A stretch of DNA of 63,988 bases, counting the filler, from Malassezia furfur (Eukaryota): NCBI GenBank assembly GCA_052055015.1. It is 11 parts of 11 records of this genome, joined end to end, with 100 filler letters (N's around TTAATTAATTAA, not from the genome) between each part and the next. Parts side by side here need not be neighbours in the genome. Positions count along the whole stretch, not along the records: positions 53,139 to 58,844 come from JBQJIT010000582.1; 10 more parts are not named here. One strand, 5' to 3'. This document shows positions 47,230-58,844 of this stretch, one piece after another; positions within the stretch are counted from its first letter, which is position 1, and each line of letters begins with the position of its first letter. Made by a program: the position numbers and the translations under genes. The notes beneath the pieces are model-generated. The model made no database searches and was not told where the DNA came from. It saw only the letters and a program-made list of their open reading frames with translations.

Positions 47230-47329
47230 NNNNNNNNNNNNNNNNNNNNNNNNNNNNNNNNNNNNNNNNNNNNTTAATTAATTAANNNNNNNNNNNNNNN
47301 NNNNNNNNNNNNNNNNNNNNNNNNNNNNN

Positions 47330-53138: not shown

Positions 53139-55980
53139 CCAAGAAGGGAGGTTCGCAGCTCGCGCAGCTCCGCTCGGGGCTGCGCGACGCCGGAGTCACC
53201 ACCAGCAAGCCAAAGAAGGGCAGGAAGGAGGACAGGGACGACCGTGTCGGGCAGTACCGCCGCGAGCAGCGCCGGAAGCGGCTCGACGCCCTCATGTCGT
53301 CGCTGAACGCGTTCGACGAGCGCACCGCGCGCGCCAAGAACGACGTGCTGGGGCGCAAGGTGAAGGGCACGACGGGGCGCCCGGGCGCGTCCAAGTCGGA
53401 CGCGATCCAGCTGCGCCGCGAAAAGCTCCTCCCGGAGCTCGAGGCGCGGCACCGCTCGTCGTCGTTCGTCGACCGCCGCTTCGGCGAGTACAACCCGCAC
53501 CTGTCGGTGGAAGACAAGATGCTCCAGCGCTTCACGCACGAGCGGCAGAACCGCATGGGCAAGACGTCGCTGTTTGACCTGAACGACGACGAGGAGGCCG
53601 GCCTGACGCACTACGGCCAGAGCCTCAGCGGCCTCGACGAGATGCCCGATGTGATGCACGAGGACGACGAGGAGCACGGTACGTATACCCGCACACACGG
53701 CGCGCCAAGGATGATCCGACGCATGCAAACGTCCAAACCGAATGAGCCGACAGGCTGTGCCGGGAAAAAGTTCTACTGGAGATTGCTGAGGCGTCGCCCG
53801 TGCGGCTTGCGAACACGCTGACCACAGGCAACATGGACGCCTACGAGACGCAGGGGCACTTTGCGGGCTTTGCCGAGGGCGAGGGCGAGCGCAGCAAAAA
53901 CGAGGTCATGAAGGAGATCATCGCCAAGTCGAAACTCGCCAAGGCCGAGCGCCAAAAGGTCAAGGACGCCGACGACGAAATGCGCATGGAACTCGACGAG
54001 GAGCTCGGCGATATCCGCTCGCTGCTCTTCTCGCAGAAGCGCGACGAGGAGCAGGACGAGGACGCGGCGCCCAAGGCGCCGGCGCCCGACGAGAAGAGCG
54101 AGGCGTACGATGCGTTTGTGCGCGAGATGGCGTTTGAGCGCCGCGCACGGCCGCAGGACCGGCTCAAGACCGCCGAGGAGCTCGAAGAGGAGCAGGCCAA
54201 GCGCCTGCGCGACGCCGAGGCCGCGCGCCTGCGGCGTATGCACGGCGAGCCGGACGAGGAGGAGCAAGATACCCACGAGGAGGAAGAGGAGGCGACGGGG
54301 CGCATGCGCTTTGGCCTGGGCGAGGGCTTGGACGCGAAGCGGCCGCGCGACGACGAGGATGAGGAGGACGACGAGGAGGGCGATGAGGAGGATGAGGAAA
54401 GCGACGAGGAGGACGAGGGCGAAGAGGGCGAGGAGGAAGAGGAGGAAGAGGAAGACTCGGACGACGACTCAGACGCCGACGACGCCGACGACGCTGCGCT
54501 CGCGCGCTTCGAGCGCCACCTCGACGCGGCCGAAGAGACCGCGCCTGGCCGGCACCGCACGCTGCCGAAGCGCAGCGAGGTGCCGACGCTGCCATTCACC
54601 TTCCCCTGCCCCAGCACGCACGACGAGCTGCTCGACCTGCTCGAGGAGCATGGCGTGCAGCCGTCGCAGCTCCACACGGTCGTGAGCCGCATCCGCACGC
54701 TGCATGCGCCGCACCTCGACGAAAAGAACCCCGAGCGGCTGCAGCGCCTGCTCGGCGTGCTGATCGACCACCTGCTGTACCGCGCGAGCCAAGCCTCGGG
54801 CGGCGACGATGCGGCGGACGTCGTGGTGCTGAACGACCTCCTTCTGCACATCGCCGAGCTCTCGAAAACATACCCCGCGCGCAGCGCCGAGCACTTTGTC
54901 GCGAAGCTCGCCATGATGCAGCGCAACCTCACGCGCGGGCTGAGCCGCGGCGCGTTGGAGCGGACGTCGCACACGTGGCCGGCGCTGCCCGAGCTGTGCC
55001 TGCTGCGTGCCGCCGGGATCGTGTGGCCGACGAGCGACCGCTGGCACCCGGTGGCGACGCCGCTCGCGCTGCTCATGGCGCAGTACCTCGCGCACGCGCG
55101 CATCCGCTCGCTCGAAGACATCGCCGCGGCGCTCTACCTCGTGTCGCTGCTCGCGTCCGACCAGCGCGCGAGCCGCCGGCTGGTGCCCGAGGCGCTCAAC
55201 GTGCTCTACTCCGTCGTAGCAATCCTGCTCCCGCCCCTGCGCGCCAAGGGCGCCGCGCCGGCCAAGGCGCTCGCCGAGGAGTTTGGCATCCCGACGCCAG
55301 ACGTCGGTGCACCGCACACGGCCGGCCTGGCGCTGCGCGAGGACGCAGCGCCCGCGGCGCCTGTGCACCTCGTGCCGCTGCTCGCGCACGCGCCCGACAC
55401 GGCGCAGACGCGTGCGGACCTGCTCGGCGTCGCGGTGCAGCTGCTCGCGACGTGGGCGGAGCTGTACGCGCCGAGCCCCGCGTTTGTGGAGCTTTTCACG
55501 CCCGCGGCCTTTTTGCTCGAGGTCGGTGCGGCGCACGTGCGTGCGAAGCAGCCGCGCATCGGCGCGCACCTCGGCGAGGCGGCGCGTGCGCTGCGTGCGC
55601 AGCTGGAGCGTGCGCTGCGTGCGCGGCGTGCGCTGCGGCTGCAGGCGCACCGTGCGCTGTCGATTGCGTCGTATGCGCCCAAGTTCGACCAGCAGGGCTT
55701 CGACCCGAAGCGCGCGACGGACCCCGATGCGGAGCGTGCGCAGAACGCCAAGCTGCGTGCGCTGCTCAAGAAGGAGCGCAAGGGCGCGATCCGCGAGCTC
55801 CGCAAGGACGCGCAGTTTGTCGCCGAGGCGCGCGAGCAACGCCGCGCCGAGGAGGACGCGGCGTACAAGCGCAAGATCGACAAGATCACCCACGGGCTGC
55901 AGGAGGAGCGCTCCGAGGAAAAGCAGCTCGACCGCGCCAAGGCGACGCTGCGCAAGCGCGCGGGCAAGCGCGCGACATAG
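53139..55980 (+). CDS. NOP14: Nucleolar protein Nop14, first codons missing; intron 53679-53827 (149 nt)
   Basis: GSQLAQLR, FVDRRFGE, LTHYGQSL, RSKNEVMKEIIAKSK, RARPQDRLKTAEE, TSDRWHPVATP, KKERKGAIRELRKD. Confidence 0.95.
53699..53798 (+). ncRNA. Intronic box C/D snoRNA candidate
   Basis: Terminal stem GGCGCGCC/GGCGTCGCC, box C AGGATGA (53708-53714), D' ATGA (53742-53745), box D CTGA (53786-53789), guide GTTCTACTGGAGATT (53770-53784). Sits in the only long intron of the window. Confidence 0.82.
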
Positions 55981-56037
55981 CCTGTACCATAGACGCCGCG
56001 GCGCGTGCGGCCCTCCAGCTGGGACCTCCACTTCCGA

Positions 56038-56976
56038 ATGGTGCGCCGCGGCCGCTGACGCAGGTGACCAAGCCGTCCAAGACCGCCGTCGCGCAGCGGT
56101 TCGTCGCCGTGACGGGCGCAAGCGCCGCAGACGCACAGCAGTACCTGCGCGAGACCAACTACCGCCTCGACGCGGCCGTCGACGCCTACTTTGCGCAGCA
56201 GAGCGCCGCGCCTCGGCTCTCGGCAGCGCAGGAGCGCGAGGCGACTGCCGCGCTCCACGCCGTGTTCGACGCCTACCAGGGTACGCCTCCCAGCTCACAC
56301 AGACCCGGATGGGGAGCCGGACACCATCACGGCCGAGGGCGCACTCCGCCTGTTTGGCGATCTCGGCGTGGACGTCGCCAGTGTGTCGGTGCTGCCGCTG
56401 TCGTACTACCTCGACGCGCCGTCGCTCGGCCACTTTACGCGCGCGGGCTTCACCGAGGGCTGGCTGCGCCTCGGCCTCGGGCCCGCGCTCGTGGGGCGCC
56501 CCGCGCCCGCCGAGGTGCTCGAGCAGATGCGCCGCGCCGTGCCGGCGATCGACGGGGCCTTCCGCACGAACGGCCCCGTGCTCCCGCCGCGCACGCCGGG
56601 CCAGGGCGCGAGCAAAAAGGGGCTGTATACTACCGTGTACGAGTACACGTTTGTGTTTGCGCGCAGCGAGGGCCAAAAGAACCTGCCCGTGGACGTGGCA
56701 CTGACGTTCTGGGACCTGCTCGTCCCGTACGCGCCCTCGTACGACGGCGAGGGCACGCGCGGCGCACCGCCCTCGTTCTCGGCGCGCCAGTACGCGCTAT
56801 GGAAACAGTTTCTGACCGAGGCGGCCAACGTGCGCATCATCTCCAAGGATACCTGGACGCAGTTTCTCGAGTTCACGCAGGAGATCGACCCGCACTTTGC
56901 GACGCACGACTTTGACGCCGCATGGCCTTCGCTCATCGACGAGTTTGTCGAGTGGGCACGCAAGCAGGATGCATAG
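56038..56976 (+). CDS. DCN1: Dcn1 (UBA-like plus PONY domain) neddylation E3; introns 56041-56063 (23 nt) and 56281-56302 (22 nt)
   Basis: FVAVTGAS..DAQQYL..YRLDAAVDAYF, FGDLGVD, FTRAGFTEGW, YEYTFVFAR.EGQKNL, ISKDTW, DAAWPSLIDEFVEW. Confidence 0.92.
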
Positions 56977-57044
56977 AGCTTTTACACGATGGTATACAAC
57001 AGTGGGTATTCAGCACGGCGTACCAACTCTGTCGCCGCGCCCGC

Positions 57045-57339
57045 TCACGCCTCCGACTCGGCGAGCTCGCGCACGTACAGCACGTTGTTGCATCTTCGTC
57101 AGCGCGCACACACGTACCGGATGAACACCTCGCCGAGCGTGCCGTTCGACTTGCCGTCCTGCAGCTCTTCGGTGTTGGCGAGCTGGAAGTTCATGTAGTT
57201 GTCGGTGCTCACTAGGAACCCCTTGTACTCCAGGCCCCACTTGAGCCGCACGAGCACCTTCTTTCCGATCTGCTGCTGGAGAAACGGCTTGGGGTTCACG
57301 GGATAGTCCTGCGTCAGCGCGCGCTCCACGTACCGGCAT
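57045..57339 (-). CDS. SMX3: Sm protein F; introns 57309-57333 (25 nt) and 57094-57117 (24 nt, AAG acceptor)
   Basis: [43 protein letters not shown]...LGEVFIR|CNNVLY. Confidence 0.93.
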
Positions 57340-57450
57340 GGTCGTCGACAACGCAGACGAGGCGCACGTGGCCGCACGTGGCCCTCAACGCGACACGGTC
57401 GCGAAGGGATCGTGCGGGGGGGACTGAGCGCAGCGCGCTCCGCACCCGCG

Positions 57451-58844
57451 ATGTCCGCGCGCGAGGAACAGGAGGCGGCGCGCACGACGCGCGTCGCATG
57501 GATCCGCGGGCCGCCGTGGCTGCGCTTGCCCATCCTCACCCTGGGACACTGGGGGTCCCACTTTGTCTGGTCGATCCTCAATGCGCGCGCGGCGCTCTTT
57601 CTCATGCGGCTCGGCATCCCCAAGAGCGTCACGTCCGTGGTGCTCATGGCCGGGCCACTGAGCGGGCTGCTCGTCCAGCCCGTCGTCGGCATCCTGTCCG
57701 ACCACTGCACGAGCCGCTGGGGTCGCCGGAGGCCCTACATTCTCGGCGGCCTTGTGCTGTGCCTCGCGGCGCTGCTGTGCCTCGCCATCGCGACCAACAT
57801 TGCGCGCATCCACAGCACGGTGTCGTCGCTGCTTGCGATCGTGCTCGCGATCGTCGGCATCGTTAGCATCGATGTGTCGGTCAATACGCTCTCGGCGGCA
57901 CACCGCGCCTTGCTGCTCGACATGCTGCCTGCCGACGAGCAGGATCTCGCGAACGCATGGGCGACGCGCTTCAGCAGCCTCGGCTCCGTGTCGGGCTACC
58001 TGATGGGCGATATGGATTTGTCGAACGGCCTCGATCTCGACCAGCTCAGCGTGCTGACCCTGTCGGCGGCCGTGCTGCTCGTCCTGACGCACCTCGGCCT
58101 GTTTGTGCTGATCGACGAGCCCTTGGCGCACGATGTGCCGCCCAACGCACCGACGTCGCTGTACGGGCGCGTGCGCGACCTGCTCCTGCACTTTTACGAA
58201 ACGAGCCGCGTCCTGCCGCCGGCGGTGTGGGGCCTCTTCCGCATCCAGTTCTTTGTGTGGCTTGCATGGTTCCCGGTGTTGTACTATAGCTCGGCGTGGG
58301 TCGCCGAGATCTACCGCGCGGCGCACCACCTGCCGGGCAACAGGCTGACCGAGGTGGCGCGCCGCGAGGGCAGCTTTGCGCTGCTGTGCAATGCGCTCAC
58401 GGCGCTCGTCGCCTCGATCCTTTTACCATTCTGCCTGCACGGTGTGCTGCCGGGTGCGTCGAGCGGCCCGCACCGCTATGCGCGTGCGCCGACCACCGTG
58501 TGGTCTGCGGACGACGAGGAGGAGACGGCCGACGATGCCAAGGCGGGCGATAGGAAGCCGCGCGAAAACGCTGAGGCACCTGTCGAGGCGGCAGCGCCCC
58601 GCACCGAGGCGCGTACGAGCGCTGCGGGGCGGTGGGGCGCGCTGCGTGCGCCGACGCTGCCCGAGGCATGGCTCGCGTCGCAAGTGCTGTTTTGCGTGAG
58701 CATGCTCTTCTTTACATGTCCGATCTACGACCGCGCGTCTGTGCCCGGCGCCGTGGGGCTGATTAGTGTGCTGGGCCTGAGTTGGGCAATGACGCTGTGG
58801 GCGCCGTATGCGCTGCTCGGCATTTTGCTGCGTACGCAGCGCGT
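57451..58844 (+). CDS. GPH-family sucrose/alpha-glucoside transporter (Sut1/SLC45-like), 3'-partial
   Basis: [70 protein letters not shown]. Confidence 0.88.

Follow-up and report, generated by a model that had tools for sequence, protein, structure and literature searches.

NOP14 locus and its 149-nt intron

The window analyzed here is a stretch of 63,988 nt (filler included), which joins 11 parts of 11 records of the Malassezia furfur genome (assembly GCA_052055015.1). Within the part derived from JBQJIT010000582.1 (positions 53,139 to 58,844) lies the gene encoding the ribosome-biogenesis protein NOP14, and the 149-nt intron of this gene very probably encodes a genuine, conserved box C/D small nucleolar RNA (snoRNA). 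This reading is built on sequence comparisons: the intron itself, an exact scaffold geometry, a 15-nt complementarity to fungal 25S ribosomal RNA (rRNA), conservation with covarying stems in relatives, and the equivalence of the predicted target with a nucleotide that is methylated in plants. All coordinates refer to the whole window, and the gene is organized as follows.

53294..53678, plus strand: NOP14 exon 1, 128 codons plus one base; matches Pfam PF04147 positions 7-133 (E=1.1e-50); spliced frame open
53679..53827, plus strand: 149-nt spliceosomal intron hosting the predicted snoRNA; phase 1, within a Gly codon
53828..55980, plus strand: NOP14 exon 2, including the stop codon; matches Pfam PF04147 positions 149-862 (E=9.8e-197)

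The intron starts with GT at 53679 and finishes with AG at 53826-53827 (its 3' end reads CTGACCACAG). Its splice signals are a 5' site GTACGT at 53679-53684, a branch motif CTGAC at 53818-53822 and CAG at 53825-53827. Its removal joins positions 53294-53678 to 53828-55980 in a 2538-nt frame without internal stop. Given these borders, the open spliced frame and the Nop14 matches in both exons, the segment is a phase-1 intron of NOP14, which confirms both the host gene and the intron length put forward in the original prediction. The nearest Atlas cluster of the encoded protein is a Nop14 cluster, whose commonest members belong to Basidiomycota.

The remaining introns of the window, which has a G+C content of 66.5%, were searched for with a permissive heuristic that combines splice signals and open reading frames (ORFs) and that returned 95 rows. 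By our own reading, these rows contain 13 distinct intron candidates of 22-40 nt with GTRNGY, CTRAY and YAG signals, in keeping with the 21-40 nt previously claimed for all introns other than that of NOP14. However, longer alternative introns are also present among the same rows, and for this reason it is plausible, although not proven, that the NOP14 intron is the only long one in the window. Similarly, the earlier proposal that intron-length outliers should flag non-coding RNAs throughout this genome is backed by the NOP14 case, and by that single case.

Box C/D scaffold of the intron

Both motif coordinates and folding located in the intron the terminal stem and the C, D' and D boxes that had been announced for it. 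The elements of the scaffold, together with the two antisense stretches, are the following.

53689..53694, plus strand: outer terminal stem, 5' strand CCGCAC, paired with 53800-53805 (minimum-free-energy and centroid folds, and pair listing)
53699..53706, plus strand: terminal stem I, 5' strand GGCGCGCC, paired with 53790-53798 (8 bp)
53707..53714, plus strand: bulge AAG of the kink-turn (K-turn; 53707-53709), then box C core GAUGA (53710-53714)
53725..53739, plus strand: candidate D' antisense element GCAAACGTCCAAACC (GCAAACGUCCAAACC), specific to the lineage of the window
53738..53763, plus strand: internal D'/C' region, from the fold
53770..53784, plus strand: D antisense element GUUCUACUGGAGAUU (GTTCTACTGGAGATT), 15 nt, complementary to 25S AAUCUCCAGUAGAAC
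53785..53789, plus strand: spacer G (53785) and box D CUGA (53786-53789)
53790..53798, plus strand: terminal stem I, 3' strand GGCGUCGCC, GGCG(U)CGCC with one bulged base
53800..53805, plus strand: outer terminal stem, 3' strand GUGCGG

The geometry of the K-turn is exact, in that the closing pair C53706-G53790 is followed by the bulge AAG, and G53710-A53711 stand opposite G53788-A53789 of CUGA. Beyond these tandem G-A pairs, the K-turn continues with U-U and G-C, and box D directly abuts the 3' strand of stem I. In this register, box C reads AGGAUGA (53708-53714), with a G instead of the consensus U at position 2. An alternative register of box C, AUGAUCC (53711-53717), was rejected, as it would require a 6-nt bulge and place C-C opposite box D. 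The predicted snoRNA would span from about 53689/53699 to 53798/53805, that is, approximately 95-117 nt.

The interior between GAUGA and the antisense element measures 55 nt. Its internal region consists of an outer helix CCG/CGG (53738-40 / 53761-63), a D'-like AUGA (53742-45) and a hairpin AGCC-GACA-GGCU (53745-56). The C'/D' half is probably degenerate and only structural; prime boxes are degenerate in fungi, according to the consulted portion of the fungal snoRNA survey (PMC5824354).

Guide element and predicted 25S rRNA target

The antisense element ends one nucleotide before box D, with G53785 as the only spacer, so that its placement at 53770-53784, immediately ahead of 53785 and 53786-53789, agrees with the position previously claimed for it. 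Counting upstream from box D, the fifth base is G53781, which pairs with the C of AAUC; thus, the D+5 rule selects precisely the nucleotide that the original prediction had named. The predicted energy of the guide-target duplex is -25.5 kcal/mol.

With regard to the target sequence, a reverse-transcription primer for Saccharomyces cerevisiae 25S rRNA named '2675' has the sequence 5'-GTTCTACTGGAGATTTCTG (PMC2577335), and 18 of its 19 positions are identical to window positions 53770-53788. The paper that lists this primer was also the only hit when the guide and target strings were searched for in the full-text literature. Its complement was found at 20 loci of genome_contigs, 17 of which are eukaryotic large-subunit (LSU) rRNA (Rfam RF02543), with the match lying outside any rRNA hit at the other three. 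In the LSU fragments, the sequence reads ...ACAGAAATCTCCAGTAGAACAAAAGGG... or ...GGAGAACAGAAATCTCCAGTAGAACAAAAGGG..., which, together with the yeast primer, substantiates the perfect 15-nt complement to fungal 25S rRNA put forward in the original prediction. In two of these fragments (L176 and L177), the 19-mer begins 722 nt from the 3' end. With a yeast 25S rRNA that we take to be 3396 nt long, this distance gives position 2675, in agreement with the name of the primer. The predicted target base is therefore C2682 of 25S rRNA in yeast numbering. It is located on the 3' strand of the 25S hairpin GGAGA-ACAGAAA-UCUCC, which belongs to domain V.

Scanning viral_contigs with the 15-mer gave at least 117 loci, and no rRNA-like flanks were seen among the matches listed, which we regard as chance or coding matches; a scan of the same collection with the 19-mer found nothing.

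As a separate observation, the 17 contigs with eukaryotic LSU rRNA (L158-L164, L166-L172, L174, L176 and L177) are short and belong to assemblies labelled as bacterial, where they are probably contaminating eukaryotic DNA.

How often such an arrangement could arise by chance was estimated in several ways. The guide 15-mer occurs once in the window when up to two mismatches are allowed, versus 0.01 occurrences expected. A comparison of both strands of the window with a 1150-nt LSU fragment yielded no other exact complement as long as this one, and two 13-mers ranked next. A strict scan for the scaffold (uninterrupted stem, 3 nt, GATGA, 45-130 nt, CTGA, stem), carried out on both strands of the 64-kb window, retrieved exactly one site, namely the NOP14 intron. 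In 100 first-order Markov shuffles, the mean number of scaffold sites was 0.89 for stems of at least 4 bp and 0.32 for stems of at least 5 bp. Hence, neither the scaffold alone nor an rRNA complement alone is rare. Their exact juxtaposition is rare, at about 1e-5 per scaffold by our own arithmetic (2 x 5500 / 4^15, where 5500 is the total length of rRNA).

Conservation and stem covariation in relatives

In order to find relatives, metagenomes were scanned with the query TTCTACTGGAGATTNCTGA, which comprises 14 guide bases plus CUGA, and 40 loci were returned. In eight of them, GAUGA lies 58-83 nt upstream, the terminal stem runs uninterrupted for 5-6 bp, and the K-turn geometry is kept. The other 32 lack GAUGA or form a stem of no more than 1 bp, and they resemble bacterial coding sequence or phage-like, AT-rich DNA. 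The eight scaffold loci fall into three groups: group A (L127, L129, L139, L142), group B (L119, L126, L136, with identical introns) and group C (L149). One member of group A, L127, was excluded downstream because its contig ends in adapter sequence: directly after the 3' stem of the snoRNA, at approximately 2540-2587, it carries what we take to be a Nextera-type adapter look-alike, and its 3' end is therefore an assembly artefact.

At all seven loci examined, the snoRNA element resides in the same phase-1 Gly-codon intron of a NOP14 orthologue, the homologous introns being 139 or 192 nt long. One intron of each group is given below.

L142 2417-2555, minus strand: homologous NOP14 intron, group A
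L126 2414-2552, minus strand: homologous NOP14 intron, group B
L149 2445-2636, minus strand: homologous NOP14 intron, group C

The protein encoded by exon 2 is 62.6-63.4% identical between the relatives and the window, 68-75% identical between groups and 96-98.5% identical within group A. Thus, the check proposed earlier, namely whether the NOP14 introns of relatives keep the boxes and the guide, came out positive at seven of seven loci, with the guide forming part of the query. The host gene, the intron position, GAUGA, the geometry, the stems and an extra G at the 5' end of the guide are independent of the search.

Regarding the K-turn, bulge and core read GAG-GAUGA in group A, AAA-GAUGA in group B and AAC-GAUGA in group C, so that the four lineages (window and groups A, B and C) have G, G, A and C, respectively, at position 2 of box C, which is loop position 3 of the K-turn. 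Among the homologues, the spacer before box D varies between G, A and U. Counted outward from the K-turn, stem I begins with C-G/C-G/G-C/C-G in the window; group A has C-G/G-C/A-U/G-C, and groups B and C share C-G/G-C/G-C/G-C. These differences represent compensatory changes at positions 2, 3 and 4 across the four lineages; at the fifth position, U-G in group B becomes U-A in group C. Likewise, the internal 3-bp helix is CCG/CGG in the window versus CUG/CAG in the relatives, and the inner hairpins (GCC/GGC, GGC/GCC, GGCC/GGCC, GGCCAC/GUGGCC) differ in both sequence and length.

These comparisons of pairs are based on box-anchored pair lists. The MAFFT alignments A1 and A2 shift box C of the window by one column, as a consequence of which the RNAalifold pair table undercounts the terminal stem. 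A small hairpin that RNAalifold placed inside the guide was regarded as an artefact, since the guide must be single-stranded.

The D' half and a possible accessory pairing

The stretch between box C and the D'-like motif could not be aligned between the window and its relatives. The candidate D' element of the window pairs over 15 bp (14 Watson-Crick and one G-U) with positions 889-903 of one LSU fragment, L161, an AT-rich, yeast-like rDNA contig with a 5S gene. Among 300 shuffles of the 31-nt D' region, one reached a run of 15. The predicted duplex energy was -31.6 kcal/mol with L161, versus -15.7 to -18.9 kcal/mol with three other fragments. The paired stretch is about 150 nt away from the 3' end of 25S rRNA, in a variable region where the other five fragments differ. 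Since the site is variable and L161 stems from unrelated yeast-like rDNA, we consider this pairing a tentative lead and not a target assignment. The earlier statement that the D' guide has no assignable target accordingly holds as far as a firm target is concerned, but has to be qualified by this one tentative 15-bp match. The candidate may hint at an additional, lineage-specific target within the 25S rRNA of the species itself.

For the region after box C of the relatives, D' targets with runs of 11-15 were rejected as chance matches because of their many G-U pairs (about 4/14 in group A and about 7/15 in group B), and that of group B also because the run overlaps the D' box itself.

Slightly downstream of box C, the relatives carry UUUCUGU (UUUCUG in group B, e.g., L126), which the window does not have. 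This motif is complementary to the rRNA loop ACAGAAA, located directly 5' of the guide target. It may represent an accessory pairing of the kind described in the portion of PMC3116282 available to us, or a coincidence.

Methylation of the target nucleotide in plants

The site predicted here is already known from Arabidopsis, where 25S Cm2683 (2'-O-methylated C2683) was newly mapped and ascribed to the guide At5gCDbox136.1 in a table whose human and yeast columns are empty at this site (PMC8583080); its context is given as AACAGAAAU-Cm-UCGUGUGGA (PMC8583080, Table S1). In a separate study, C2683 was assigned to SnoR148 (PMC8053127), with a RiboMeth score of 0.93-0.94 in the wild type and the sequence A2679 A A U C2683 U C G U G U G G A A C A A A A G G G (PMC8053127, Table S4). 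Arabidopsis numbering equals yeast numbering plus one on both sides of the site (Gm2620/Gm2619, Am2641/Am2640, Gm2792/Gm2791 and Gm2816/Gm2815; PMC8583080). As the sequence context and the numbering offset agree, plant Cm2683 corresponds to the target C of the fungal guide; judged by sequence, the C that closes AAAUC in AAAUCUC, a stretch reading AAAUC*UCC in fungi, is its exact counterpart.

A review table lists the site also in tomato and tobacco, with the human, yeast and alga cells empty, and contains one further entry, Cm2429, apparently in the archaeal column, as judged from tab positions (PMC11542601). A 2026 preprint terms Cm2683 plant-specific (bioRxiv 10.64898/2026.10.05.756201). Our literature search retrieved no published mention of 25S-C2682 or of the calculated human and Schizosaccharomyces pombe equivalents. 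The empty yeast columns of PMC8583080 and PMC11542601 bear out the claim that the site is not in the S. cerevisiae methylation map. The related suggestion of a lineage-specific guide is only partly sustained: the site is absent from the yeast and human tables, but it is a known one, with its counterpart in Arabidopsis Cm2683.

Interpretation and alternative explanations

Following established snoRNA biology, the processing, protein binding and activity of the RNA can be envisaged as follows. Upon splicing of the NOP14 pre-mRNA, the lariat would be debranched, and exonucleases would trim it as far as the terminal stem and K-turn, which would be protected by Snu13, Nop56, Nop58 and fibrillarin (Nop1). 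The 15-nt element would then pair with positions 2679-2693 of 25S rRNA (S. cerevisiae numbering), on the 3' strand of the hairpin and beyond, and fibrillarin would 2'-O-methylate C2682, opposite the fifth nucleotide upstream of box D. We thus infer that the function of this RNA is 2'-O-methylation of a nucleotide that is unlisted in the yeast and human tables and methylated in plants.

Several observations weigh against a functional guide snoRNA. The full consensus of box C, RUGAUGA, is not present in the intron, as the U at position 2 is absent, and none of the four lineages has it (AGGAUGA in the window and group A, AAGAUGA in group B, ACGAUGA in group C). In the consensus box C, this U contacts Snu13/15.5K. 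No canonical, UGAUGA-like C' box was found in the interior of the snoRNA. The identity of the 18 bases of guide and CUGA among the homologues arises by construction of the search, to which orthologues lacking the guide are invisible. When the snoRNA region was searched with Rfam 15 at E<=10, the best snoRNA-type match was archaeal sR38, with 11.9 bits versus a threshold of 50. That the species' own 25S rRNA holds the target is deduced from the S. cerevisiae sequence, other eukaryotic fragments and the fact that the guide has been retained. Finally, the fold of the whole intron is not more stable than those of shuffles (z = -0.59), an energy that is normal for box C/D RNAs because of their long single-stranded guides. 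As for box C, the consulted portion of PMC5824354, which covers 5593 fungal box C/D snoRNAs, reports a conservation of at least 99.7% for all box positions but two (the purine that opens box C and the initial base of box D), and absolute conservation for the first GA; against this background, a box C without U is unusual. The deviation is real, yet not disqualifying, since both the geometry and the G-A core remain intact and have been conserved alongside covarying stems.

The loss of the near-invariant U in all four lineages and the lack of a canonical C' box could also be accounted for by a genuine box C/D ribonucleoprotein acting mainly as a chaperone of 25S folding or assembly, without efficient methylation: a deviant box C and a degenerate C'/D' half could impair catalysis, and the UUUCUGU of the relatives, complementary to the loop ACAGAAA beside the target, may pair to a greater extent than a simple guide does. 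This explanation appears improbable in view of the exact register of a methylation guide, with one spacer base followed by CUGA, and of the methylation of the same nucleotide in Arabidopsis, to which a box C/D guide has been assigned; moreover, the available portion of PMC3116282 describes extra pairing as an aid to methylation and not as a substitute for it. A structure of this sort might, on the other hand, have arisen by chance or be the decaying relic of a snoRNA that yields no functional RNA in M. furfur, given that about 0.3-0.9 scaffolds are expected per window, that 13-nt rRNA complements occur twice elsewhere in it and that box C is deviant. We give this very little credence, because the copy in the window has kept GAUGA, CUGA, 14 bp of terminal stem and 15/15 guide bases intact at about 63% identity of the host protein, and because a useless 149-nt intron would be expected to shrink where well-supported introns measure 22-40 nt.

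Even slighter is the probability that the structured intron serves as a cis-regulatory element of NOP14, in splicing or autoregulation, with an incidental complementarity to rRNA. It is true that all four lineages carry the element in a single host gene and at a single intron position, and that its long terminal stem draws the splice sites together. Nevertheless, such a role leaves unexplained both a 15-nt rRNA complement placed one base from the CUGA of a K-turn, an arrangement with a chance of about 1e-5, and the retention of the guide amid covarying stems. Furthermore, it is a common and established pattern that genes for ribosome biogenesis host snoRNAs.

Returning to the guide snoRNA as the preferred reading, a broader and more tentative proposal, to which we give somewhat less than an even chance, is that this fungal clade independently gained a guide for a methylation otherwise found in plants (and in one apparent archaeal entry), by means of a snoRNA family with a U-less box C that tolerates any base at K-turn loop position 3. 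If this were true, C2682/Cm2683 would be a recurrent, convergently selected methylation site rather than a plant peculiarity, and Snu13 would need no flipped-out U in this clade, or in general. As box C never has the consensus U in the four lineages, this family would escape any snoRNA finder for which UGAUGA is obligatory; if the proposal holds, such tools would systematically miss other families as well.

An unannotated snoRNA in a non-model fungus is routine; what is noteworthy is the apparently independent targeting and the family-wide loss of the U. To fungi whose snoRNAs appear largely unannotated, the present case would contribute a conserved family of such RNAs and one predicted modification of rRNA, and it challenges the label of Cm2683 as plant-specific. 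The cargo of the intron would offer a concrete reason why it has remained about five times longer than those around it in a genome with minimal introns. In addition, the U-less box C provides a natural test case for the requirements of Snu13 and of snoRNA-finding software.

Other features of the window

A transfer RNA (tRNA) gene was detected at positions 1365-1457 on the minus strand (Rfam, 43.4 bits). It has a 24-nt insertion at the anticodon-loop position, which is presumably a tRNA intron. Between positions 47274 and 53090, ORFs of 1917 amino acids (minus strand) and 1914 amino acids (plus strand) overlap almost completely; in DNA of 66% G+C, long open frames on both strands are no evidence of genes.

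Comparison with known snoRNAs

The RNA predicted here is a previously uncatalogued member of a well-known class. Rfam 15 reported only a tRNA and no snoRNA family over the window at the gathering threshold, and nothing in the relatives L142, L126 and L149 at E<=1. The comparison with Rfam that had been proposed earlier thus places the snoRNA of the NOP14 intron outside the families of release 15. The main text of the fungal snoRNAome study, whose full families and targets are given in its supplements, mentions neither Malassezia nor NOP14 nor a target near ~25S-3899 (PMC5824354), an alignment position that we calculated from the equivalences 3836 = 2619 and 3941 = 2724 of the same study. In a 2017 small-RNA study, the genome annotation of Malassezia sympodialis contained no snoRNAs (PMC5209728).

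The closest functional parallel is Arabidopsis SnoR148/At5gCDbox136.1 (AtsnoTAIRsnoRNA40), a box C/D snoRNA assigned to the homologous nucleotide. In contrast to the snoRNA of the NOP14 intron, the plant RNA has a canonical UGAUGA box C, and in a comparison by eye of its first 59 nt (PMC8583080), no similarity was evident outside the boxes. The plant and fungal guides must in any case differ, because the rRNA 3' of the site does (UCGUGUGGAAC in Arabidopsis, UCCAGUAGAAC in fungi). In S. cerevisiae, snR67 (Gm2619, Um2724) and snR68 (Am2640) are likewise box C/D guides directed to the same stretch of 25S rRNA (PMC8583080, PMC5824354). They are the nearest-acting yeast guides, and their target nucleotides lie 42-63 nt away from C2682.

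Genes for ribosome biogenesis commonly host snoRNAs. In its arrangement, the NOP14 intron resembles those of other intronic fungal snoRNAs such as snR59 in RPL7B, with one snoRNA per intron and a host gene involved in ribosome synthesis. The main text of PMC8476143, which does not mention NOP14, describes, in the part consulted, snoRNA-bearing introns of RPL7B and NOG2 that are retained in intron-poor fungi, including M. sympodialis. The likeness extends to the host intron, whose position has been kept in intron-poor fungi, Ustilaginomycotina among them, as reported in that part of the study (PMC8476143). The snoRNA of the NOP14 intron differs from the RPL7B type in its host gene, its target and its non-canonical box C.

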